From Pseudomonadota bacterium (GTDB lineage Bacteria; Pseudomonadota; Gammaproteobacteria; JAADHS01): a stretch of DNA of 64,000 bases. The notes beneath the pieces were generated by a model. It had not been told where the DNA came from. It did no database searches and saw only the letters and a program-made list of their open reading frames with translations. Below, piece after piece: positions 2,464 through 20,049 of this stretch. The DNA lies in contig JAKACW010000009.1 of assembly GCA_021821045.1 (NCBI GenBank), positions 1,109 to 65,108 on the forward strand, read 5' to 3'. Each line of letters begins with the position of its first letter. Within the stretch, counting starts at the first letter, position 1. The position numbers and the translations under genes were made by a program.

Positions 2464-3702
2464 CTAGAGAAACGAAAACTCAAAACCATGGGCCTTCTGT
2501 TCCGCGTCCATGATCTCGAGCTTGACATCCACTTGCTGTTGCGGCGCGATGCCGACGTCCACATCGTCAGGGTTGGTCAAGTATTCGCTGGGTTCGAACT
2601 GGCGCGTCGCGACACGGTTGCCCCCCGCGTCCATCAGGTCGAGTCGCAGCACCGGGTAAGGTTGGCTGAACGGCGCGTCGTTGACGAAGGTTGCGCGCAC
2701 TTCGAGTGCATCGCGAATCTTTGGATGGACGCGAATGTCCCGGCTGACCAGTTTGATCAACGTAACGTTGCGCATGAGGGCGAGTTTGCAGCCGGCGAGT
2801 TCGCACATGCGTTCGAGCCAGGGGCGCAGAGGGGCATGGCGCGCCAGTTCATCGCGGGCGAAGTAGGCGATCTGGAACAAGATCGCGCTCACCAACACCA
2901 GTGTGGCGATGCCCCAGCCTAGCGTGGCCAGTGTATCGCCGCCGTCGTAACCGCCGCGCCGGCGATCGAGTTCGAAACGCGTGACCTGCTGCAGTTCGCG
3001 CCCAGCCAAATCAATGGAATCGAACAGATTGGGCAACTGCCCGCCGGGCTCTTCTTTCGGCATGGCCGGAATGGCATTGTCGAATCGCGGCATTGCCGGA
3101 GCGGCGGATCGAGACACGGGCGGCGGCTGCGGACTTGGCGCCGGTGCAGGGAGCGGGTTCGCCGGTTCAAAAATCGGCGGGCGTCGCGCCGGTTCGGGCG
3201 GCGGTGGAGTCGGTTGCTGCACCGGTCGTGCGCGCGGCTTGGGCGGCGGCGGTTCGTAGGCCGGCGGTGGCGGCGCGGCGGGCGGCGGCGTGCGCAATCC
3301 CGGCGTGTTGACGCGATTGACCGGCGGCAACGGTCGCGGCGGCGGCGGCGGTGTCGCGGTGGGAATGATGATGTGGCGCGCATTTACGCGAACGCCTTCG
3401 GCTGCGTATTCCTGCGCCAAGTCTTGCGGCAGTGACGGCGTGTCGAACGTCTCGGGAACAACCTGCGTTTCTACCGCCGGTTCGACTTCGTCTAGTGCGA
3501 CCGGCTCCCCGTCGACTTCCCACTCTTCGAATTCTTCTTCGTTTTCTTCATCGACCGTTTCGCTCGGCAGATCTTCGTACAACGCTTCGTAGGCATTGAA
3601 GGTGTTGTAGCAAAACCCGCAACGCACCTTGCCACCGACGAGTTCAAGTTGCTCCTCAGTGATGCGAAATAGAGTCTTACAATTACTGCATTGGGTGTAC
3701 AT
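2464..3702 (-). CDS. Zinc-ribbon (MJ0042-type CxxC...CxxC) / DUF3426-family protein with a long Pro-rich low-complexity linker
   Basis: N-terminus MYTQCSNCKTLFRITEEQLELVGGKVRCGFCYNTFNAY is a zinc ribbon. The middle ~110 aa is P/A-rich (TPPPPPRPLPP...PPPEPARRPP). The C-terminus has one TM plus a DUF3426-like domain. It sits between prmA and dusB, as does the equivalent hypothetical gene in Pseudomonas. Confidence 0.7.
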   Translation of the reverse strand: MYTQCSNCKTLFRITEEQLELVGGKVRCGFCYNTFNAYEALYEDLPSETVDEENEEEFEEWEVDGEPVALDEVEPAVETQVVPETFDTPSLPQDLAQEYAAEGVRVNARHIIIPTATPPPPPRPLPPVNRVNTPGLRTPPPAAPPPPAYEPPPPKPRARPVQQPTPPPPEPARRPPIFEPANPLPAPAPSPQPPPVSRSAAPAMPRFDNAIPAMPKEEPGGQLPNLFDSIDLAGRELQQVTRFELDRRRGGYDGGDTLATLGWGIATLVLVSAILFQIAYFARDELARHAPLRPWLERMCELAGCKLALMRNVTLIKLVSRDIRVHPKIRDALEVRATFVNDAPFSQPYPVLRLDLMDAGGNRVATRQFEPSEYLTNPDDVDVGIAPQQQVDVKLEIMDAEQKAHGFEFSFL

Positions 3703-7351: not shown

Positions 7352-7966
7352 TTAGAGCAGTTTTAGCAGGGCATTTTCGGCGACGGTTTCGCTCAAGCCA
7401 CCGGCGGCGATGGAGGCGATTCCCCCATCGCGATTGACGAATACCGTGTACGGCAGCACGCCGTCCACGTTGCCGTATTGCTTGGCCAGCGGAATCCCGT
7501 CGTCATCGCCGATCAGCACCGGATAGTCGATGGGGATAATCTTCATGAAGCGTTCCACGGCTTTGGCATCGTCGAGGGCGATACCGATGAACTGCACGCC
7601 CTGATCGCCATACTTTTTTTGCAGCTCATTGAAGGCCGGAATTTCCTTGCGGCACGGGGCACACCAGGTGGCCCAAAAATTAACGACTACCACCTTGCCG
7701 TCCCATTCGCCCGCGGTGCGGGTGTTGCCTTCCAGGTCCGGCAGGCTGAAGTCGGGGCGCAGTCGTTTGAGGAAGCTACTGCTGCCCGAAGCGGTCGATG
7801 CCACCTTGACTATCCCATTGCCACCGGTTGCGGCCTCGCTTGTTGGGGCATCGGCGAAGATCGGTTCGACTGACGTCGCTTGAAACTGTTTGCTCAACAG
7901 GTTGCCGCCGACCATGCCGACGATGAACAGGATGACAGCGATGATGAGAACCCGTTGTTGCGACAT
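7352..7966 (-). CDS. Membrane-anchored TlpA/ResA-like thiol:disulfide oxidoreductase (thioredoxin fold)
   Basis: An N-terminal TM helix is followed by a thioredoxin domain with FWATWCAPCRKEIP (WCxxC active site). It lies immediately downstream of dsbD. Confidence 0.85.
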   Translation of the reverse strand: MSQQRVLIIAVILFIVGMVGGNLLSKQFQATSVEPIFADAPTSEAATGGNGIVKVASTASGSSSFLKRLRPDFSLPDLEGNTRTAGEWDGKVVVVNFWATWCAPCRKEIPAFNELQKKYGDQGVQFIGIALDDAKAVERFMKIIPIDYPVLIGDDDGIPLAKQYGNVDGVLPYTVFVNRDGGIASIAAGGLSETVAENALLKLL

Positions 7967-7984
7967 ATACCGTCCTTGTACTGG

Positions 7985-10288
7985 CTAGAGTGCGACAGAC
8001 GGGTGCAGCGCGCCGTCGATCACCTGTTTGAACTGCTCCGGTTTCATGAATCCGACCACGCGGTATTCTTTCCTTTCCGCGCCTTGTCCGTCAAAAAATA
8101 GTATGGCCGGCGGACCGAAGATACCGAACTGTTTCAGCAGCGCCTGATCGTCATCGTCGTTGAGCGTGACATCCGCCTGCAATAGGATCGCGTCGCCCAA
8201 TGCCGCCTGCACGGAGGCATCGCTGAAGGTGTATTTTTCCATCTCTTTGCAGGAGACGCACCAATCCGCATAGAAATCCAACATCACAGACCGGTTTTGC
8301 GCCGCCGCCGCCGCGAGTTCGGCTTTGACGCCGGACCAGCCTTTAACCTTGCGGAATTCGAGTTCGTGGGTGGCGCTGACGCCGGTTGGGCCGACACTGG
8401 CGAATACGCCGCGCAACGGTTGCAGCGCGTCCTTGCCGCCGCCGGAGGCGCCGACGATCAACAGCACGCCATACAGGAGCGACACCACGCCCATGCCTTG
8501 CCAAAACTGCCGCCAGCCGGTGGCATCGACATCGAGGCGGCGCAGCGCGCCCAGGTAGACGCCGCTGACGATAGCTAGCACACCCCACAACAGCAGTGTG
8601 ATCGACGCCGGCAGAATCCGCTCCAGCATCCAAATCGCCAACCCGAGCAGCATGACGCCGAACACGGCTTTCACGGTGTTCATCCAGCCGCCAACCCGCG
8701 GCAGCAATTTGCCCGCCGACGTGCCGATCAGCAGCAGCGGGGTGCCCATGCCCAGGCTCAGCGCGAACAGCGCCATGCCGCCGAACACGGCGTCGCCGCT
8801 TTGACTGATGTAAATGAGCGCGCCGGCCAAGGGTGCGGCGACACAGGGGCCGACGATGAGCGCCGATAGCAGACCCATAATGGCGACGCCGATATACGTT
8901 CCGCCTTGCTGTTTGTTGCTGATTTCCGAAAGTTTGCTTTGCAGCGCGGCGGGCAACTGTAAGTTGTAGAAGCCGAACATCGACATGGCCAGGGCGACGA
9001 AAATCGCGGCGAAGCTCGCAACCAGCCACGGCTCCTGAAACAGCGCTTGGAGATTTTGGCCGGTCATCCCCGCGATGACCCCGGCAATGGTGTATGTCAA
9101 CGCCATTGGCAGAACGTAAATGAGCGATAAAGTGAACGCTTTGCGGGTGGACAGCCCCGCGCCCTGGCCGACGATGATGCTGGACAGGATCGGCACCATG
9201 GGGAAGATGCAGGGCGTAAATGCCAAGAGCAGTCCTAGTCCGAAAAATGCCGCCAGCGTGCCAAAGCTCGCGCCGCCGGCCAGCGTGGCGGCGTAGCGGT
9301 CTTGCTCGCTGACGTAGTCGCCCGGAGCTTCCGTCGGCGGTTGTGAGGTCGGCGGCGTGCTTGCCATGGCCAAGCGCAGCGGTACGTCGGTTTTGGTTGG
9401 GGGATAACAGAAACCGGCTTCGGCGCAGCCCTGATAACGGGCTTCGAGAATGATCTCCTGGGCCGCGGTATTGGCGCGCTGCATGGGCAAGCGAATCTCG
9501 ACCCGGTTGTGGTAGACCTCCATGCGCCCAAAGGACTCATCTTCCTTGAATTCGCCGGCCGGGCTCTGGTGCGGCAGCAGCGTGACGCCGTCGCCGCTTT
9601 TCAACGCGAAGCCGAATTTCTCGCGGTAGAGGTAATAGCCATCGGCGATGTCCCAGCGCAGTACGGCGGTGTACGGGTCGACGGCGTCGGCTGATAGAAC
9701 GAACGCGCGCTCGACGGGCAGAAACTCGCCTTGGGTGCCGCCGCCGAACTTATTGCGCAGGCTGCTGCCCAGGCGCGAGAACAAGCCCGGTTCTGCGCTT
9801 GGCGCAGGCTCCGACATGGCGACCGGCAGCGCGACGCTTACGGTTTGTTTGTGCGGCGGATAGCACACGCCCACATCGGCGCAGCCTTGGGATCCGGCGA
9901 TGATCTCGACCTCGTCGGGCAGTGCGCCGGCGACCGATTTGACCGGCACCGTGACGGATACGGCTTGACGATAGGTCTCGACGTCGCCGAAAAACTCGTC
10001 CACCTTGGGTTTGCCGGGCGGGATATCCGCAGTGCCCAGTTCGACGTTGGGCGTGGACGTGGAGAAATTGAAGCGGTGCTTATAGAGAAAATAACCTTCG
10101 GCAACAGTCCACGTGATGCGAATCGCGTCGGGGCCGGCGGCTTCGGCGGAGATCTTGAAGGCGTCGTCGACGCGCAGCAATTCATCTGGATCGACCGCGA
10201 AGGCGCGGGGAATGCCGAGCGTACCCAGCAATGCCAGAGCAAGTGCGATCCGTGCCGTATGATTTTTGACGCGTGGTTTTAAATGCAT
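7985..10288 (-). CDS. dsbD: Thiol:disulfide interchange protein DsbD (DipZ) with a tandemly duplicated N-terminal alpha domain
   Basis: 767 aa. It has a signal peptide, then two copies of the nDsbD catalytic motif (SQGCADVGVCYPPHKQTV and YQGCAEAGFCYPPTKTDVPL). Next is the polytopic beta domain (FTPCIFPMVPIL ... GPCVAAPLAG), then a C-terminal thioredoxin gamma domain (YADWCVSCKEME). A standard DsbD is ~590 aa with one alpha domain. Confidence 0.9.
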   Translation of the reverse strand: MHLKPRVKNHTARIALALALLGTLGIPRAFAVDPDELLRVDDAFKISAEAAGPDAIRITWTVAEGYFLYKHRFNFSTSTPNVELGTADIPPGKPKVDEFFGDVETYRQAVSVTVPVKSVAGALPDEVEIIAGSQGCADVGVCYPPHKQTVSVALPVAMSEPAPSAEPGLFSRLGSSLRNKFGGGTQGEFLPVERAFVLSADAVDPYTAVLRWDIADGYYLYREKFGFALKSGDGVTLLPHQSPAGEFKEDESFGRMEVYHNRVEIRLPMQRANTAAQEIILEARYQGCAEAGFCYPPTKTDVPLRLAMASTPPTSQPPTEAPGDYVSEQDRYAATLAGGASFGTLAAFFGLGLLLAFTPCIFPMVPILSSIIVGQGAGLSTRKAFTLSLIYVLPMALTYTIAGVIAGMTGQNLQALFQEPWLVASFAAIFVALAMSMFGFYNLQLPAALQSKLSEISNKQQGGTYIGVAIMGLLSALIVGPCVAAPLAGALIYISQSGDAVFGGMALFALSLGMGTPLLLIGTSAGKLLPRVGGWMNTVKAVFGVMLLGLAIWMLERILPASITLLLWGVLAIVSGVYLGALRRLDVDATGWRQFWQGMGVVSLLYGVLLIVGASGGGKDALQPLRGVFASVGPTGVSATHELEFRKVKGWSGVKAELAAAAAQNRSVMLDFYADWCVSCKEMEKYTFSDASVQAALGDAILLQADVTLNDDDDQALLKQFGIFGPPAILFFDGQGAERKEYRVVGFMKPEQFKQVIDGALHPSVAL

Positions 10289-10291
10289 GAT

Positions 10292-10624
10292 TTATTCTTT
10301 ATTTTTCAGAGACGTTTGCTCGCTGATCCAACCTAGGTAATCACTTGATCCGGCTTCAATTGGGACCATGATGATTTCCGGTAGTTCATAGGGGTGTAGG
10401 GCGCGAAGCGTGGTCTCCAGCTTGGGATACAGGTCGCGCCGTGTTTTAATGACCAGCAGGATTTCGTCGCTGGTTTCGATATTTCCTTGCCACTCATAGA
10501 CTGAGCGAACGCCGCGCACCTGATTGACACAGGCTGCCAGACGGCTTTCGACCAAGTGCCGGGCAAGCGAATCGGCCGCGCCGGAGTCGGGACAAGTGCA
10601 AAGAACTATTCCGTACGTGCTCAT
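10292..10624 (-). CDS. cutA: Divalent-cation tolerance protein CutA
   Basis: 110 aa, CutA1 fold pattern (YGIVLCTCPD...LAACVNQV...VYEWQGNIETSDEILLVIKT). It is adjacent to dsbD, the classical cutA1-cutA2 arrangement. Confidence 0.9.
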   Translation of the reverse strand: MSTYGIVLCTCPDSGAADSLARHLVESRLAACVNQVRGVRSVYEWQGNIETSDEILLVIKTRRDLYPKLETTLRALHPYELPEIIMVPIEAGSSDYLGWISEQTSLKNKE

Positions 10625-10722
10625 CGTGGGACGTATTCGAACATATAACCGGGTCGGCTGCCCATTGCGGATATCCGTATCGCGCCGGCTGACCAGTATA
10701 ACGGCCGGGGGGAGGAAAGCCT

Positions 10723-11160
10723 GTGTTTCGCGTTGTGGTGTTGTTATTCATTATTGTTCCGCTGGTCGAGCTGTATGTGCTCATCAAGGTCGGCGGTCTG
10801 ATTGGTCCAGCGCTGACGGTCGCGTTGGTCATTCTGACAGCGATCATCGGCACTTTTCTATTGCGTCAGCAAGGTTTTGCTACCCTGCGCCGGGTGCAGG
10901 ACAACCTGGGCCGCGGCGTGTTGCCGGCCGCTGAGCTGGTCGAAGGCCTTATCTTGCTGATTTGCGGGGCGTTTCTTCTCGCGCCGGGGTTCGTTACCGA
11001 CACCTTGGGGTTCATCGGCCTGATTCCGGCGGTGCGTCGCCGGCTCGCCGACCTGATCGTGGGGCAGATGCGCCACGGCTTGGTGTCTGTTTCCGAGGTG
11101 CACGATGCCGAAACACGGAAACATTACACGATCGAGGGCGAATACAGGCGGGATCGTTGA
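10723..11160 (+). CDS. fxsA: FxsA family inner-membrane protein
   Basis: Two N-terminal TM helices, then LLxPGFVTDTLGFIGLIP, which is the FxsA signature (LLLLPGFFTDFLGLLLLLP in E. coli). It lies immediately upstream of groES as in E. coli. Confidence 0.85.
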   Translation: MFRVVVLLFIIVPLVELYVLIKVGGLIGPALTVALVILTAIIGTFLLRQQGFATLRRVQDNLGRGVLPAAELVEGLILLICGAFLLAPGFVTDTLGFIGLIPAVRRRLADLIVGQMRHGLVSVSEVHDAETRKHYTIEGEYRRDR

Positions 11161-11190
11161 GTTTTCCTGCTGGCCTTCCTCCGGTTGGGG

Positions 11191-11218
11191 TTGACTCCAA
11201 GCCGGCCATCGCTATCAT
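11191..11218 (+). promoter_or_regulatory. Candidate groESL promoter (TTGACT-N16-TATCAT), about 85 nt upstream of the groES ATG
   Basis: TTGACT at 11191-11196, a 16-nt spacer, TATCAT at 11213-11218. I could not recognise a clean sigma-32 CTTGAAA/CCCCATnT pair, so this is a sigma-70-type call by eye. Confidence 0.35.
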
Positions 11219-11302: not shown

Positions 11303-13251
<1,949 letters not shown>

Positions 13252-13285
13252 TTCCCAAACGCTTTCGTCTGCACTAGTAAATTGA

Positions 13286-13312
13286 AGCCCCGCATTCGCG
13301 GGGCTTTTTTTT
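13286..13312 (+). terminator. Rho-independent terminator of groESL
   Basis: GCCCCGC-att-GCGGGGC followed by TTTTTTTT, located 35 nt after the groEL stop. Confidence 0.9.
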
Positions 13313-13464
13313 CGACTTTAGAATCCGCAGTGGCGCGACCTAGTAGCATTGGTCCGCGCCCATCCGTGCTTCATACGTGCTTTCACTAGTTGGCTTGTGT
13401 TGCCTCGAGTGCAACTCTCCCGTGACTTGGATCGGCTACAACACCGCGACTGGGAGGGCACGCA

Positions 13465-14712
13465 ATGGGGCGCAGGATTTTGCCGACGCTGAAAAAAACC
13501 ATTTTTTCGATTCTGACCCTGCTGGCGCTGGCGCTGGCGCTGGCGCTGGCGCTGGCGCTGGCCGCGGCTCAGGCCAATACGGCGCCTGGCGACAGCGAAG
13601 CCCGGCTCAAGGCGCTGTTGGACGGCGCGGCGGATGCAAGAAGCGCGGCGCTGCAGTACAGCGATTTTGTGCGCGCGTTCCGCGCCCGTCACCAGAATAA
13701 CGTCTCCACTTATACGATCTACAATCAGTATCTGGACGCCGTCGGCGTTCGCCGCATCAGCAACTACCTCGAAACCGAGGACGCGGCCTGCCACGGCGTG
13801 GCGCACGGCTTGGGCCGAGCGATCGGCGAACGGGTGCCCGATTTGCGGGAGGCGATGTCCGTCTGTGGCAGTACCTGCACCTACGGTTGTGTCCACGGCG
13901 TGTTCAAGCGCTACTTTGTCGACAAGGCGGCTGACGAGCCGGACCACAGTCATCACCAGCACAACGCCGCAAATGCCGATAAGCCCGACCAATTCGCGTA
14001 TGATCGTTTCGCCGCGGAGGCCCTTGCCGCCTGTCGTGAAGATTCGCGCACGGTGGACGGCTTCTACCGCGGCAATTGCGCTCACGCCGTCGGTCACGCG
14101 TTTGGTTCGCTGGAGGCCGACATCGACAATGCACAGCGCGCCTGCGACATGTTCGACGGCGAGGAAATGCGCTACTACTGCGCGACCGGTGTCTTCATGG
14201 AGCGCGGTGGCGAGATTCGCCGGGGGTTGTTCGACAAGGGCGTGACTCGATCGGACAAACAACGTCTCGCGGTCGAATACTGCGGCCGATTCGAGCAGCA
14301 TGCCGGCGCGTGTTTGCGCTTTGTCGCGCACGCCATCTCGACGCGGGAGGAGGCCGATGGGTTTCGGGCGCTTTGCAGGGATCTCGCAGGCGCCGCTCGC
14401 GGCGGGTGTTTCAACGCTCTTGGCTTTTTGACTCGAACGTTCACGGCTAAAAACCTGGATGTGTTCACACAGGTCTGTTCCGGCGCGACACAGCATGACC
14501 GATCAGCGTGCGTCATTGGACTGTTGTTAACGAAACCTAATCAGCGTCACCGGAAAAGTCTTGAACAGGCGTGTGAAAACGTTGGCGACGAGCCGCTGAC
14601 CTCTCTGTGTAAGGATCAGCTTCAGCGCAATTACTACCAAGTCGGCAATCCCGCCATGCAGCAGTTGCTTCGGGTGGCGCAGGAGGACGACCATGCGCAG
14701 GTCGTCGATTGA
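13465..14712 (+). CDS. Secreted cysteine-rich repeat protein of unknown function. Its signal-peptide h-region is encoded by a (GCTGGC)7 microsatellite.
   Basis: A GGGAGGG Shine-Dalgarno sits 8 nt before the ATG. The N-terminus MGRRILPTLKKTIFSILTLLALALALALALALAAAQA is a Sec signal peptide. The mature part holds about seven ~45-aa repeats, each with two Cys and a C-[HA]-[GA]-V-x-H-[GA] core (CHGVAHGLG, CVHGVF, CAHAVGHAFG, CATGVF, CLRFVAHAI, CFNALGF, CVIGLL). The overlapping minus ORF 13318..14496 translates the microsatellite as RQRQRQ and is a shadow. Confidence 0.7.
   Translation: MGRRILPTLKKTIFSILTLLALALALALALALAAAQANTAPGDSEARLKALLDGAADARSAALQYSDFVRAFRARHQNNVSTYTIYNQYLDAVGVRRISNYLETEDAACHGVAHGLGRAIGERVPDLREAMSVCGSTCTYGCVHGVFKRYFVDKAADEPDHSHHQHNAANADKPDQFAYDRFAAEALAACREDSRTVDGFYRGNCAHAVGHAFGSLEADIDNAQRACDMFDGEEMRYYCATGVFMERGGEIRRGLFDKGVTRSDKQRLAVEYCGRFEQHAGACLRFVAHAISTREEADGFRALCRDLAGAARGGCFNALGFLTRTFTAKNLDVFTQVCSGATQHDRSACVIGLLLTKPNQRHRKSLEQACENVGDEPLTSLCKDQLQRNYYQVGNPAMQQLLRVAQEDDHAQVVD
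13521..13562 (+). repeat. Perfect hexanucleotide microsatellite (GCTGGC)x7 inside the signal peptide of the 13465..14712 CDS
   Basis: Direct read: gctggc repeated seven times, 13521-13562, encoding (LA)n. Confidence 0.95.
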
Positions 14713-14788
14713 TGTGGCCTATGAAATGACAGAACCCGATCCGAACGCGCCGAAGCGGGCTCTGTCGTATCCTGGTCCGAGGGGCCGA

Positions 14789-15550
14789 CTATTGGACGCG
14801 GATGCCAAGTTCCTTTGATTTTGCAGCCCACAACCCATTCAGCGCGGACCCTTCGGCGAGATTGACTGTGCCGGCATTGGAAATGATCTTCTGGCCTTCG
14901 ATGCTTAGCGCGAAGTCGACAAATCGACGCGCCTCACCAGCAGGTGCGTTAATGTCGGTCACGATGTATAGAGGGCGGAACAGACTGTATTGGCCGTTGC
15001 CGATGTTGGCCTTCGATGGTTCGACGCCGTCGAGGGCAAGCAGTTTGACGTTGCGTTTGCGCGCGGCGCTCACGCCATCCACGGCGAGCGCGTTTGGATC
15101 TTGTTCGACGAGTTCCTCAATGGTCTCGGTGCCCTTTTCCTTTTTCGGCTTTCCGTCAAGCGCGGGGAATTCGACGTTGGGGTCCTTGAAGAGTAATACG
15201 CGGAACATGTGTCCCGCCCCGGATTCTTTGCTCTCACGGTCGATTAGGTTGATCGGCGCATCGTGGCCACCCAGCTCCTTCCAGTTCGTGATTTCGCCTA
15301 GGTAGATCTTCTTTAGTTTCTCCGACGAGACATTGCTCACGGCATTGGCTTGGTTGACGATAACGACCAGCGCGTCCCACGCCACTTGAGTTAGTGTTGA
15401 ATTCTCTTCATCTGCACGCACATCCTTGCCGTTCCAAAGCTGGTGGCGACAGGTACCGCCAAGCTGGTTGTCTCCTGCCGAAACGCTGCGTATGCCTTTT
15501 GCGCCGCCGCCCCACGTTGAACGCGAGCGGCGACGGCGATGAGACAACAC
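14789..15550 (-). pseudogene. PstS-like (PBP_like_2) phosphate-type periplasmic binding protein. Appears N-terminally truncated: no signal peptide and no first anion-binding loop.
   Basis: Strong match to the PBP_like_2 C-lobe and part of the N-lobe (GGGAKGIRSVSAGDNQLGG...AWDALVVIVNQANAVSNVSSEKLKKIYLGEITNWKELGG...GVEPSKANIGNGQYSLFRPLYIV). The longest ORF starts at GTG 15550. The same frame hits a stop 28 codons upstream with no ATG, and no other minus-strand frame encodes an ISGSTTVAP-like start. Confidence 0.55.
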
Positions 15551-15619: not shown

Positions 15620-18600
15620 GTGACCCGAGCGTTACAAGTCTGTCATAGTGCACGAACAATGACCCCATCAGAATCGTCCACATTGTCCTCTGCCGCAACG
15701 CTTGAGGCACTGCAACAAAGCGAAGCGCGGCTCAAACTAGCGACCGAGGCTGGCGGGGTCGGACTATGGGATTGGGATTTGCGCGCCAATACAGTCTATT
15801 TCTCACCCGAATACAAGCGCCAACTGGGCTATGCCGACGATGAGCTTCCAAACCGCTTCGAGGAATGGGAGCGGCGATTGCACCCCGATGATCGCTCGCG
15901 CACGTTGACTACGGTCGAGCGGTACATTGCCGAGCCTTGGCCGGATTTTGAATCCGAGTTCCGTCTGCGGCATCGCGACGGCAGCTATCGCTGGATCATG
16001 GCGCGCGCCATGCTGCAATACGACGCCGCTGGCAAAGCCGTGCGCATGCTCGGGTCGCACATCGACATCACCGCGCGCAAGCAGGCGGAGGAGGCACTGC
16101 GTGACAGCGAGGAACGTTTTCGCGCCACCTTCGAGCAGGCGGCGGTCGGCATCGCGCAGGTGGCGCCGGATGGACGATGGCTCCAAGTGAACCGGAAGCT
16201 GTGCGACATCGTCGGCTACAGCCAGGAGGAATTGTCGCAGCGCAGCTTTCAAGACATTACGTACCCCGAAGATCTGGATGCCGATCTTGCGTTTGTCCGG
16301 CGGATGTTGGCGGGAGAGATACAGACCTACGGCATGGAAAAGCGCTATGTCCGCAAGGACCGGTCGCTGGTTTGGATTTACCTCACGGTCGGCCTAGTGC
16401 GGCAACCCACGAGCGAGCCGAAATATTTCATTGCGGTGGTCGAGGATATCAGCGAGCGCAAGCGAGCCGAGGCGGCGCTACAAGAAAGCCAACGGGCCCT
16501 CGCTACCCTGATCCGCAACTTCCCGGGGATGATCTACCGCTGCAGAAACGATAAAGACTGGACGACGGATTTCGTCAGTGATGGTGTTTTTGCGCTGACC
16601 GGGTATTCCCCATCGGATCTTAGAACGGGCGAAGTCCATTTCGGGCAGATCATCCATCCGGATGATCGCGAGCTGGTGTGGAACACCATCCAAACGGCTC
16701 TGAGGGAAAAGCGGCCCTACACACTGACCTACCGGATCCACACTGCCTCCGGGCCGGAAAAATGGGTGTGGGAACAAGGTCAGGGGACTTACTCTCCGTC
16801 GGGCGAACTCGTCTACCTGGAAGGCTTCGTCGCCGACATCACCGATCGAAAACGCGCTGAGATGGCGCTGCAGCAATCCGAGCAACGGTTACGCGACCTG
16901 ATCGACGGACTTGGTCCGAACATGTTCGTTGGACTGACGACACCTGACGGCATCCTGTTGGAGGCGAACCGCCCGGCGTTGGCGGCGGCCGGCCTGAAAC
17001 TGGAAGACGTGCTGGGCAATCCGGTTGAGGAAACGTACTGGGTTAGCTATTCCGAAGAAAGTAAACGGCGGATGCGCGCGGCCATCGAGCGTGCCGCGCG
17101 CGGCGAGCCCTCACGCTACGACGTGGCGATACGCGTCGGTGAAAGCCAGTTTACTGACATTGATTTCTCGATCCATCCTCTGCGGGACCTGGAGGGCAAA
17201 GTTGCTTTTCTTGTCCCGTCCGCGGTTGTCATCACCGAGCGCAAACGGGCCGAAGCCGAGAAGCTCCGTCTTGAGCACCTCTTGATGCAGTCCCAAAAGA
17301 TGGAAGCGATCGGGCAATTGACGGCGGGTATCGCGCATGACTTCAACAACATTCTGGCCAGCGTGCTGGGTTATTCGAGCCTGGCGCTCGAGCAGTACGT
17401 GCCGGACACATCGAGCAAACTGGGTGAGTATCTGCGCGAGGTCCAGACCGCCGGCAATCGCGCGCGTGAGCTGGTCGCGAGTCTGTTGGCATTTTCGCGT
17501 ACAGGTTCCGCGAATCGGCGCCGCGTGTTAGTGGGACCTCTCGTGAAAGAGGTGATGAAGACGCTCGCGGCGGCCATCCGGTCCAGCATCGAGCTCACAA
17601 CCAACATTGAGGCATCTGATGCCCATGTCGTTGCGGACCCGGTGCAGCTCTACCAAGTCATTATGAATTTGGTGATCAATGCGCGCGACGCCTTGGGCGA
17701 GCATGGTCGAATCGCGGTGGGTGTGCGTCGGTCGCATCTCGCCGGCGGGCACTGCGCTGGATGCCATGCCGACCTCGGCGGCGACTTCGTGGAACTCACC
17801 GTGAGCGACACCGGCCGTGGCATTCCTGCCGACGTGCTACCGCATATTTTTGAGCCTTTTTTCACGACCAACGCGACAGGTAAAGGCAGCGGCGTGGGCT
17901 TGTCCGTCGTGCACGGTGTGGTGCACGACTGCGGGGGCCACGTGTTGGTCGAGTCGACCCCCGGCCAAGGGACCATCATGCGGATCGTATTGCCAGAGGC
18001 GGTGGCCGCCGAGGCGACCGCCGCGACGCCGCTCGCAGGCCCCGCTCCTGTGCAGCCTGTCGACGGTCGGCACATACTCGTTGTCGATGATGACGCAGCG
18101 TTGGGTCAGTTGATCGGCGAGACACTGCAAGCGCGCGGCTACCTCGTGACCATCTATACGGACAGCCGCGCGGCTCTCGACCGTTTTGCCGCCGCGCCGG
18201 CGCAGTTCGATGCGCTCATCAGCGACCAGACCATGCCCGGGCTGACGGGCGTCGAACTGGCAAAAGCCGTACGCGCACTGCAGCCCGAGTTGCCGATCAT
18301 CCTATGCACCGGCTATAGCGCAACCCTAGATCCGGAGCTTGCGACCCAACTCGGAGTCCGTTTGTTCTACAAGCCGGCGCCGTTCGAAGGGCTAATCCCC
18401 ATTCTCGCGGAACTCTTCGCCGCACACCCCGGCGCCGGCAAACCCGCACGCATACTCTTGGTCGATGACGACGCATCCGTGCTCATCCTAATGACACGTA
18501 TCCTCGAGCGCCTCAACTACAAAATCAGCGGAGTTTCCGACGCCGAGACCGCACTGGCGACGCTAACCGCGAATCCACGCGAATACGATGTCTTGGTCAC

Positions 18601-18826
18601 CGACATCGGGCTTCCCGGCCGGTCGGGACTCGAGCTGGCACGTGCGGCGCGGCACGTTCGCCCCGATCTGCCCGTCATATTGACGACAGGCGCCTTGCGC
18701 CCGGGCGAGGTCGAAACAGCGCGCGGTTTGGGCATTCAAGACATCGTGCTCAAACCCAATACCGTACGAGAACTCGGAACGACGTTGGATCGTCTCGTCC
18801 GCAAAGCCCGGAGGGCTCGCGACTGA
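15620..18826 (+). CDS. Soluble multi-PAS hybrid sensor histidine kinase (4x PAS/PAC, HisKA, HATPase_c, 2x REC)
   Basis: Four PAS/PAC units are each delimited by ITERKRAE-like linkers (ITARKQAEEAL, ISERKRAEAAL, ITDRKRAEMAL, ITERKRAEAEKL). The phospho-His box is AGIAHDFNNIL. The N/G1/G2 boxes are VINARDALGEHG, DTGRGIP and GSGVGLSVVHG. Two receiver domains follow (HILVVDDD..., RILLVDDD...). There is no TM segment. The true start may be the Met at 15659. Confidence 0.88.
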   Translation: MTRALQVCHSARTMTPSESSTLSSAATLEALQQSEARLKLATEAGGVGLWDWDLRANTVYFSPEYKRQLGYADDELPNRFEEWERRLHPDDRSRTLTTVERYIAEPWPDFESEFRLRHRDGSYRWIMARAMLQYDAAGKAVRMLGSHIDITARKQAEEALRDSEERFRATFEQAAVGIAQVAPDGRWLQVNRKLCDIVGYSQEELSQRSFQDITYPEDLDADLAFVRRMLAGEIQTYGMEKRYVRKDRSLVWIYLTVGLVRQPTSEPKYFIAVVEDISERKRAEAALQESQRALATLIRNFPGMIYRCRNDKDWTTDFVSDGVFALTGYSPSDLRTGEVHFGQIIHPDDRELVWNTIQTALREKRPYTLTYRIHTASGPEKWVWEQGQGTYSPSGELVYLEGFVADITDRKRAEMALQQSEQRLRDLIDGLGPNMFVGLTTPDGILLEANRPALAAAGLKLEDVLGNPVEETYWVSYSEESKRRMRAAIERAARGEPSRYDVAIRVGESQFTDIDFSIHPLRDLEGKVAFLVPSAVVITERKRAEAEKLRLEHLLMQSQKMEAIGQLTAGIAHDFNNILASVLGYSSLALEQYVPDTSSKLGEYLREVQTAGNRARELVASLLAFSRTGSANRRRVLVGPLVKEVMKTLAAAIRSSIELTTNIEASDAHVVADPVQLYQVIMNLVINARDALGEHGRIAVGVRRSHLAGGHCAGCHADLGGDFVELTVSDTGRGIPADVLPHIFEPFFTTNATGKGSGVGLSVVHGVVHDCGGHVLVESTPGQGTIMRIVLPEAVAAEATAATPLAGPAPVQPVDGRHILVVDDDAALGQLIGETLQARGYLVTIYTDSRAALDRFAAAPAQFDALISDQTMPGLTGVELAKAVRALQPELPIILCTGYSATLDPELATQLGVRLFYKPAPFEGLIPILAELFAAHPGAGKPARILLVDDDASVLILMTRILERLNYKISGVSDAETALATLTANPREYDVLVTDIGLPGRSGLELARAARHVRPDLPVILTTGALRPGEVETARGLGIQDIVLKPNTVRELGTTLDRLVRKARRARD

Positions 18827-19556: not shown

Positions 19557-19928
19557 TCAGAACCGATTGAACCGGCGGAAGCGGTTGAAGCCGCGGACGA
19601 CAGTTGTCGCATTGCCGTTGTTTACCGCGGTGACCCGGCGGAAATCATCGCCGTCGCCGCTGGAGATGCCCGTTCCCGTGGCGCCGTTGATAACGACGCG
19701 GCGATCATCGGCACCGAAGCGAGTGAAGCGGTCGTCGCCGGAGACAACGATGGCGGTGTTGACCGGAGCGGCTATGGTGGTGAAGCCCGAGCTGAAGCCC
19801 ATTCCGCCCATACCACCCATGCCACCCATTCCCATTCCGCCCATACCACCCATGCCGCCAGCGAAGGCCATGGGCGCTGCTCCGAGTGCGACAGCCAATG
19901 CGCCGATCTTTACGGTTTTGCTCAACAT
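19557..19928 (-). CDS. Small secreted Gly/Met-repeat protein (unknown function)
   Basis: A GGAGGG Shine-Dalgarno sits 7 nt before the ATG at 19928. The signal peptide is MLSKTVKIGALAVALGAAPMAFA|GG. It is followed by GGMGGMGGMGMGGMGGMGGMG, encoded by an imperfect 9-nt DNA repeat at 19799-19862. Then comes a G/D/T/N-rich region, and the protein ends FNRFRRFNRF. It is co-directional with and 106 nt downstream of the methyltransferase gene. Confidence 0.65.
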   Translation of the reverse strand: MLSKTVKIGALAVALGAAPMAFAGGMGGMGGMGMGGMGGMGGMGFSSGFTTIAAPVNTAIVVSGDDRFTRFGADDRRVVINGATGTGISSGDGDDFRRVTAVNNGNATTVVRGFNRFRRFNRF

Positions 19929-20049
19929 AGTCCTGCCCTCCAAGTGTGATGTGCCAGTGTGTGTTTGCTTTGTTGAGGCGCATCTTGGCAGGGCAAGATT
20001 AGGCGAAGCTTAGTGGAGTCTTAGTCTGAGCTTAAGGGTGAGTAATCCG

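Follow-up and report, generated by a model that had tools for sequence, protein, structure and literature searches.

We describe here a gene on the forward strand of a 64,000-nucleotide stretch of a Pseudomonadota genome assembly (GCA_021821045.1, contig JAKACW010000009.1, positions 1,109 to 65,108; hereafter the window), which occupies positions 13465-14712 and encodes a Cys- and His-rich α-repeat protein of 415 amino acids. We hold with high confidence that the gene is real, that its product is exported and built from disulfide-stapled repeats, and that the microsatellite encoding the core of its signal peptide is genuinely prone to slippage. The explanation that we favour on balance is a protein exported by the general secretory (Sec) pathway whose disulfide-stapled solenoid binds a metal or haem ligand, behind a signal-peptide core of slippage-prone length. 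The protein adds a member to a family not yet described, one that is similar in design to a known kind.

The coding sequence is a 1,248-nt open reading frame (ORF) of 415 codons and a stop codon, opening with ATG and preceded by a Shine-Dalgarno sequence, GGGAGGG, at 13452-13458, 6 nt ahead of the start codon. It starts about 150 nt 3′ of the groEL gene's intrinsic terminator (13284-13315, forward strand), which comprises a 10-bp stem at 13284-13307 with 7 GC pairs and a following T-run. This groESL terminator sets the 415-aa gene apart as its own transcription unit. A scan of 13200-14900 for sigma-70 promoters found none, a negative that carries little information for this host. The host is an uncultured gammaproteobacterium: the GroEL of the window has no match above 89% identity, and its named matches at 84-88% are metagenome-assembled genomes (MAGs) of Gammaproteobacteria and Thiohalomonadaceae. 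GC content at the three codon positions of the 415-aa gene is 66/46/73% (window GC 59%), the pattern of a real gene.

Further support for the coding strand comes from a copy at 96% nucleotide identity on a Logan contig (SRR33230236; L001), which differs from the window gene at 22 aligned positions. Assigned to codon positions 1/2/3 of the forward frame, these differences fall 2/6/14, while on the codon positions of an overlapping 392-aa ORF on the reverse strand (13318-14496) they fall 12/6/2. Twelve of the codon changes are synonymous and 7 are non-synonymous; 5 of the 7 amino-acid changes lie in residues 4-18, and only 2 in the mature protein. The third-position bias indicates that the forward gene is under selection and that the reverse ORF is its non-coding shadow, and the 12/6/2 pattern rules out the latter as a true gene. 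A first-pass annotation, made by a model from the sequence alone, had proposed both a real, exported gene product with GGGAGGG and a signal peptide just after the groESL terminator and the shadow status of the reverse ORF, and both are borne out.

Residues 1-37 (13465-13575) read as a signal peptide, with the layout MGRRILPTLKK-TIFSILTL(LA)7AA-QA followed by NTAP. The n-region, MGRRILPTLKK, carries a charge of +4, the uncharged core extends over 24 residues from T12 to A35, and A35-Q36-A37 forms an AXA motif ahead of N38, so that both the n-region and the predicted cleavage site are of the Sec type. Export through the twin-arginine translocation (Tat) pathway was considered and rejected: GRRILP is only a partial match to a Tat motif, the 96% orthologue has R-M in place of the arginine pair (R4M), and other family members lack RR. 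The core is moreover very hydrophobic, as opposed to the weakly hydrophobic core expected of a Tat signal, and neither Pfam nor NCBIfam gave a Tat-signal match for the protein. A lipoprotein was likewise rejected, since there is no lipobox cysteine and the first cysteine is residue 109. Export is a trait of the family as a whole: 136 of 169 members begin with a hydrophobic run of 10 residues or more, with a median of 15. Runs of 20 or more (20-25) are found in only 11 of the 169, and the window protein, with 24, lies at this extreme.

The center of the signal-peptide core is written by a perfect (GCTGGC)7 microsatellite at 13521-13562, which encodes (LA)7. Tandem Repeats Finder reports it with 7.0 copies, 100% matches and a score of 84, the top-scoring tandem repeat in the 64-kb window, and even a 5-unit tract has 0.00 expected matches over 100 shuffles. 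This confirms the first-pass description of the core as a perfect hexanucleotide repeat. In frame, the tract reads CTG GCG six times and then CTG GCC, so that 7 of 7 leucine codons are CTG and 6 of 7 alanine codons are GCG. Such codon uniformity points to recent expansion by slippage rather than to protein-level selection for Leu-Ala.

The number of units varies among closely related genomes, as had been predicted for isolates. The window, taken as reference, has 7 units and 415 aa; a 98-kb contig from ENA ERZ27237524 (k141_279037; L020) has 6 units and 413 aa; NCBI assembly GCA_027343985.1 (L019) has 5 units and encodes a protein of 411 aa (P0159) that is otherwise identical; and the 96% relative L001 has about 2 units, CTC CTG GCG CTG GCC, and 405 aa. 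Over 9.6 kb, L020 differs from the window by one single-nucleotide polymorphism at 17190 and the loss of 6 nt in the GCTGGC repeat. Over 17.6 kb, L019 shows the same polymorphism, a 12-nt loss in the GCTGGC repeat, and a 39-nt indel in a second repeat near 19833. The polymorphism (T in the window, G in L019 and L020) lies inside a gene for a PAS/HisKA/HATPase/REC hybrid kinase at 15620-18826, and every other difference between the window and these two assemblies is a change in tandem-repeat length. The GCTGGC tract has therefore changed at least twice on a tree with about 1 substitution per 10-18 kb, which implies a mutation rate orders of magnitude above that of a single nucleotide position. 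Replication slippage in the tract is well supported. An exact-match scan of Joint Genome Institute metagenome contigs with the 44-nt downstream flank yielded no further alleles.

All three comparison sequences (L001, L019 and L020) are metagenome assemblies, and De Bruijn assemblers may mis-size perfect repeats that exceed k, so we asked how far the differences in unit number could be assembly or consensus artefacts of short reads instead of biological alleles. We consider this quite unlikely. The tract spans just 30-42 nt, below normal read length, and the name of the L020 contig implies k=141, at which single k-mers cover the repeat together with its flanks on either side. These flanks do not differ between the alleles, whose lengths change by exact multiples of 6. 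In L001, the codons flanking the short tract have diverged, a pattern that collapse of a repeat would not give. One point nevertheless weighs against treating the alleles as three independent isolates: related samples, or even a single set of samples run through different assemblers, may underlie the three near-identical assemblies, in which case the series could reflect heterogeneity within a population or, in part, the choice of assembler.

Other tandem repeats are present in the window. The second in-frame variable repeat, at 19797-19859, lies in a reverse-strand ORF at 19557-19943, and L019 carries 39 nt (13 codons) more than the window there. This ORF encodes a small exported protein (MLSKTVKIGALAVALGAAPMAFA followed by GGMGGMGGMGMGGMGGMGGMG...) with a (GGM)n run directly after its signal peptide; no Pfam family is on record for it, and its Met-rich GGM runs resemble Met motifs that bind Cu(I) as well as the C-terminal tail of GroEL. 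A further tandem repeat, an imperfect one of the GGC/18-nt type, occupies 3242-3295, beyond the part of the window aligned with L019; it lies in a 412-aa reverse-strand ORF (2464-3702), which the L019 annotation describes as a zinc-ribbon/DUF3426 protein.

Because the 6-nt unit preserves the reading frame, every allele encodes a full-length protein and only the length of the core changes. The uncharged core has 8+2n+2 residues, that is 14, 20, 22 and 24 for n = 2, 5, 6 and 7. Hydrophobic regions (h-regions) of signal peptides mostly span 7-15 residues, and signal peptidase, in eukaryotic data, rejects cores longer than 18-20 residues through a membrane-thinning ruler (PMC8584900). By these measures the 14-residue run of L001 is the only allele of typical Sec length, and the cores of the window (24), L020 (22) and L019 (20) exceed it, being as long as a transmembrane helix. 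A crude hydrophobicity sum over the best 19-residue window, computed with Hessa scale values, is above zero at n≤3 and close to 0 at n=4, and it falls to between -3.2 and -4.2 kcal/mol at n=5-7. Together with the core lengths, this suggests that the step from about 2 to at least 5 units crosses the range from a cleavable signal peptide to an expected signal anchor targeted by the signal recognition particle (SRP).

We therefore considered what such variation might do. The young (GCTGGC)n tract gains and loses units by replication slippage with the frame intact, and the alleles of 5-7 units may be targeted co-translationally and poorly cleaved, leaving the protein tethered to the inner membrane. 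In its strongest form this would amount to a heritable, reversible topology switch, in which alleles of at most 3 units give a cleaved, free periplasmic protein and alleles of at least 5 an uncleaved anchor, targeted by SRP, that holds the same His-rich metallo- or haem-protein at the inner membrane. We regard such a switch as improbable; if true, it would represent "localisation phase variation" without frameshift in a free-living environmental bacterium, and a first functional handle on a family of helical-repeat proteins with eight disulfides whose unannotated clusters number over 1,000. That repeat length affects function in any way is somewhat less doubtful, yet still rather unlikely. Two considerations count against a functional role. 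The limit of 18-20 residues comes from work on the signal peptidase complex of eukaryotes and not on bacterial LepB, to which it may extend by analogy, and the 5-, 6- and 7-unit alleles all lie at or above the threshold, so that variation among them may matter little phenotypically.

A neutral polymorphism, in which a length-tolerant core simply slips and all alleles are exported and cleaved alike, has in our estimation close to an even chance, and it explains the data equally as well as tuning of export. Consistent with neutrality, the signal peptide of this gene evolves fast, as the concentration of the L001 replacements in residues 4-18 illustrates, and the long N-terminal runs of the 11 family members noted above indicate that such cores are tolerated. 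The second in-frame repeat, 6 kb away, also varies in the same assemblies, which points to general repeat instability rather than a dedicated switch, and a 6-nt unit makes on/off switching impossible. Set against this, cores of 20-24 residues exceed both the usual 7-15 and the 18-20 cleavage limit, and some effect on targeting or cleavage would be expected on physical grounds; in addition, of the three differences that separate the near-identical genomes, two sit at the N-termini of exported proteins. The first-pass proposal of a contingency locus therefore holds for the presence of a repeat within the coding sequence and for its copy-number variation among near genomes, and fails for on/off switching, which an in-frame 6-nt unit does not permit. 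The repeat is at most a "tuning knob" and not a classical contingency locus, and tuning of export is put forward as a hypothesis.

Several known systems share elements of this arrangement. In Neisseria opa genes, CTCTT repeats in the region coding for the leader peptide change length by slipped-strand mispairing, and here too a simple repeat lies within the region encoding a hydrophobic signal peptide. The 5-nt unit of opa, however, causes frameshifts and on/off switching, whereas the 6-nt unit of the window keeps the frame and changes core length; opa belongs to host-adapted pathogens, the window to an environmental bacterium. More generally, loci of the simple sequence repeat (SSR) "tuning knob" or contingency type resemble ours in having a repeat inside a gene for an envelope protein, with a copy number that differs between near-identical genomes, and SSR contingency loci differ in switching on and off, which the window tract cannot do. 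In-frame changes of the h-region with reported effects on secretion are known from the Leu-Ala-Leu indel of human APOB, the leucine stretch of PCSK9 and engineered poly(Leu-Ala) signals. Those cases are eukaryotic or artificial and comprise one or two alleles, whereas the window tract is a bacterial hexanucleotide repeat with at least 4 lengths, the longer of which reach transmembrane length. To our knowledge, in-frame repeat variation inside the core of a bacterial signal peptide has rarely been documented, the bacterial example we are aware of, opa, working by frameshift. Leucine runs at the N-termini of human transmembrane receptors have been noted as putative signal peptides (PMC1557989).

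An in-frame polymorphic microsatellite in a signal-peptide core is an uncommon form of variation driven by SSRs, and one open to direct testing. The natural series of 2, 5, 6 and 7 Leu-Ala units spans the length range expected to lead from cleavable signal to anchor, and it offers a direct test, in bacteria, of how h-region length relates to targeting route, cleavage and localisation, as well as a test of microsatellite "tuning knobs" outside pathogens.

The mature protein is predicted to be an all-α repeat protein. An AlphaFold2 model built from a 12-sequence alignment has a mean predicted local distance difference test (pLDDT) score of 84.3, a predicted template modelling score of 0.80 and about 22 helices; low confidence is confined to residues 159-170 and the C-terminus. 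Following the signal peptide, residues 38-105 (13576-13779) form a variable N-terminal helical extension, which is absent or unrelated in homologues from Nitrospiria. Next comes a cap helix bearing the motif C109-H110-G-V-A-H114-G-L-G117 (13789-13815), in which C109, H110, H114 and G117 do not vary across a set of 110 homologues (18-39% identity), to which the conservation counts below also refer. Residues 127-385 (13843-14619) then fold into seven helix-loop-helix units with one Cys pair each: 134/142, 190/205, 227/239, 273/283, 304/315, 338/349 and 370/382, at a spacing of 8-15 residues. Placed on the predicted helices, each proposed pair would join a cysteine that ends the first helix with one in the first turns of the second. 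A disordered His-rich linker, residues 159-170 (13939-13974; DHSHHQH, pLDDT <50), separates units 1 and 2. Two further motifs stand out, G-N-C205-A-H207-A-V-G210-H211-A (14071-14100), with H207, G210 and H211 invariant, and Y-Y-C239-A-T-G242-V-F-M245-E246 (14173-14202), with C239 and G242 invariant and M245 present in 109 of 110.

The first-pass count of "about seven" repeats accordingly stands, as seven units with a Cys pair each plus the N-terminal cap helix. Its proposed core, C-[HA]-[GA]-V-x-H-[GA]-x-G, holds in strict form for CHGVAHGLG of the cap only; the other units carry looser motifs, namely CVHGVFK, CAHAVGHAFG, CATGVFME, CLRFVAH, CFNALGF and CVIGLLL. The total of 14 cysteines that it gave is incorrect, as the protein contains 16, along with 15 histidines. 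Sequence similarity between units is weak (best hhalign P 6.5e-4; P<0.02 in 8 of 28 pairs) and unit length is irregular, at 25-41 residues. The predicted secondary structure shows the periodicity clearly. The marginal similarity between units suggests that the repeats are ancient and degenerate.

Conservation of the cysteines points to disulfide bonding. Ten of the 16 are invariant among the 110 homologues and each of the remaining six is retained by 106 or more, so the alignment confirms that the cysteines are conserved, as had been anticipated; full-length members mostly have 16 or 17. Where cysteines are lost, they are always lost jointly: C134 with C142 in 4 of 4 cases, C190 with C205 in 1 of 1, and C370 with C382 in 1 of 1. 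Joint loss is the expected signature of disulfide partners. We infer seven intra-unit disulfides and, by elimination, an eighth between C109 and C138, which would tie the cap to unit 1. The cap helix and the seven stapled units would together form a solenoid-like domain.

This design is akin to that of HcpB, HcpC and COA7, which are built from Sel1-like repeats: α/α solenoids of an oxidising compartment with one disulfide per repeat. In COA7, the paired cysteines lie 8-11 residues apart and haem is bound through His and Met (PMC8892353), comparable to the 8-15-residue spacing and the near-invariant His and Met residues of the window protein. There are also differences. Repeats of HcpB, HcpC and COA7 are 36 residues long, as against the irregular units described here; the window protein would have an additional inter-unit disulfide, unlike Sel1-like-repeat proteins; and the stripe of conserved histidines in its family is absent from them. 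No Sel1 or TPR match in Pfam was obtained for the window protein at E≤10. Among the 110 relatives there was no Sel1 match, and TPR matches were confined to fused N-terminal domains of two proteins (P0050 and P0045). Membership in the Sel1-like repeat/Hcp/COA7 group was rejected, as the protein fails the profile test and its model does not superpose on HcpB or HcpC. It is thus similar in design to that family and not a member of it.

Fold comparison led to other solenoids. The best structural matches of the predicted model are HEAT/ARM-type α-solenoids and proteasome Rpn subunits, with which it would share stacked helix pairs and an elongated all-α domain, and the search of Protein Data Bank (PDB) folds with the model assigned no named family. 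A LanC-like toroid, suspected from the CHG and GxxG-like motifs and the number of about seven repeats, was rejected for lack of either a profile or a fold match.

Sequence searches gave a similar result. The 415-aa protein had no significant match in Pfam and no match in NCBIfam, and PDB sequences returned no match, a profile search giving only noise at E>2. The one Pfam candidate, DUF6491 (E=0.042, 14 bits), was rejected because it scores below the cut-off of 27.5 and covers only the signal peptide and N-terminal extension. The first-pass statement that no common periplasmic repeat is recognisable thus agrees with negative searches of Pfam, NCBIfam, PDB sequences and PDB folds. Its description of the repeats as novel is apt in that they are unannotated in Pfam and NCBIfam, and inapt in that the family is large. 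A word-indexed search with the single sequence found 11 homologues, all unnamed or "hypothetical", and a word-indexed profile search with an alignment (A1) found fewer proteins than this single-sequence query. A profile search of 1.84 billion cluster representatives, however, recovered 3,400 at E≤1e-3, 1,120 at E≤1e-10 and 184 at E≤1e-30, most of them 330-440 aa long. A scan of species-representative genomes located 17 loci, all in MAGs, from Gammaproteobacteria, Nitrospirota, Thermodesulfobacteriota, Dadabacteria and one bin labelled Methanosarcinales.

No Pfam family is common to the 110 members, and additional domains are sporadic: the N-terminal TPR domains of P0050 and P0045, a C-terminal cytochrome c in P0036, and, in the 3,580-aa P0141, 12 matches to the module together with a GH3 N-terminal glycosidase domain and, at the C-terminus, HEAT/LRV repeats. 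Family members also occur in several copies, as tandem paralogues in one genome (L015, 9734-12038) and, in the bin labelled Methanosarcinales (L013), as a pair on opposite strands with 4.7 kb between them (10001-11197 and 15854-16987). The family thus duplicates locally and, provided the bin has been assigned correctly, may extend to archaea.

With respect to function, near-invariant side chains other than cysteine, five His and one Met, sit on the Cys-bearing helices of the cap and units 1-3. H110, H114, H207 and H211 are present in 110 of 110 homologues and H144 and M245 in 109; at position 246, 91 homologues carry E and 16 carry Q, and R285 is kept in 94. Two of the helices bear an H-x3-H pair. 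Within units 1-3, these conserved residues lie two and six residues past the cysteine of the second helix, and this equivalent register suggests that they should share one face of consecutive helices. In addition, stretches with at least 4 His per 8 residues occur in 19 of 164 members (12%) at varying positions: after the leader, between units 1 and 2 as in the window, between later units, or at the C-terminus. We propose that H110, H114, H144, H207, H211, M245 and E246 may form a periplasmic site for a metal ion or haem, with the variable His-rich loops acting as capture arms. The protein would accordingly be a metal-ion- or haem-binding chaperone, buffer or redox accessory of the periplasm, a role that we advance tentatively and to which we give slightly less than an even chance. 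A c-type cytochrome was rejected, as the protein has no CXXCH, the nearest pattern being C138-TYG-C142-V-H144.

Several observations weigh against metal or haem binding. The spatial clustering of the His and Met residues is a prediction from the repeat register, searches detected no known metal- or haem-binding domain and no homologue has yet been studied, and all-α repeats are more often scaffolds than enzymes. At two stripe positions the window protein itself departs from the consensus, with N at 317 (H in 72 of 110 homologues) and I at 351 (E or D in 81 of 110). Gene neighbourhoods vary across the family, with TPR, HTTM, glycosyltransferase and NnrS genes, and a glycan- or protein-binding role is therefore conceivable.

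The chief alternative is accordingly a structural or ligand-binding scaffold without metal chemistry, such as a binder of envelope glycans or partner proteins, in which the histidines serve in hydrogen bonding or in catalysis on carbohydrates or peptides. It accords with the best structural matches, which are protein-binding solenoids, with the linkage of 12 modules to a GH3 domain in P0141, with GT4 and GT2 glycosyltransferase genes 3′ of the Nitrospiria homologues, and with TPR proteins fused or adjacent in several lineages. Five near-invariant histidines and a methionine in 110 sequences at 20-40% identity would, however, be unusual for a pure scaffold, and the two helical H-x3-H pairs, the recurrent His-rich inserts and the adjacency of ZnuABC genes in the nearest clade also speak against it. 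We therefore judge a metal-free scaffold or glycan-binding role to be unlikely, though a serious contender, and retain metal or haem binding as the preferred reading.

The family has broader relevance. The protein provides an entry into a widespread group, with 1,120 clusters at E≤1e-10 in at least 5 bacterial and archaeal phyla, that has neither a Pfam or NCBIfam model nor a solved relative. Its signature is sharp, comprising 16 conserved cysteines (eight inferred disulfides), five near-invariant histidines and one methionine. Combined with the cytochrome-c maturation and Zn/Mn-type import genes that neighbour it in the closest clade, this signature makes the protein a good target for structure determination and for metal and haem analysis.

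That clade, at about 40% identity (L021 671-10412, L022, L023 and L027), holds the gene in a conserved cluster. The order is multihaem cytochrome c, ResB, CcsA, a 232-aa TPR protein, the homologue, an optional MFS gene, DUF1499, ZnuA and an ABC ATPase, followed by an ABC-3 permease where the contig reaches; a 4-nt overlap with the TPR gene is present in 3 of the 4 loci. TPR proteins also lie upstream of homologues in other lineages, or are fused to the module. The neighbourhood search of the 17 genome loci revealed no partner conserved across the whole family.

The first-pass annotation had also proposed that the protein is a client or partner of a block of DsbD, TlpA-like redoxin and CutA genes, which lies about 3 kb upstream at 7352-10624. 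Comparison gave no support to this idea, and a dedicated relationship of this kind seems to us very unlikely. The block is indeed present, but on the reverse strand, and fxsA-groES-groEL and the terminator separate it from the 415-aa gene. The linkage is not conserved in 26 homologue-bearing loci from other organisms, and neither a DsbD nor a thioredoxin family recurs among the 64 neighbour ORFs of the 17 loci. Seven of the eight inferred disulfides join consecutive cysteines, and DsbA forms disulfides between consecutive cysteines without an isomerase, so the protein could be oxidised by DsbA with little need for isomerisation. In favour of a link, the ResB and CcsA genes adjoining the nearest clade belong to a pathway that uses thioredoxins fed by DsbD or CcdA, and in L026 the homologue has a redoxin gene at a distance of 3.6 kb. 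The ResB/CcsA adjacency is at best a faint echo of a thiol-redox and cytochrome-maturation theme and gives no support to a specific partnership with DsbD.

Other neighbourhoods differ from that of the closest clade. Two Nitrospiria homologues without the N-terminal extension (L025 4318-6461 and L026 1137-3302) are followed directly by GT4 and GT2 genes, and NnrS lies 3′ of one homologue (L009). In two unrelated MAGs (L024 392-5825 and L015 7198-8616), genes for HTTM proteins, which are vitamin-K γ-carboxylase-like (PF05090), stand by homologues; in L024, three HTTM paralogues surround the homologue, and one of them overlaps it by 10 nt.

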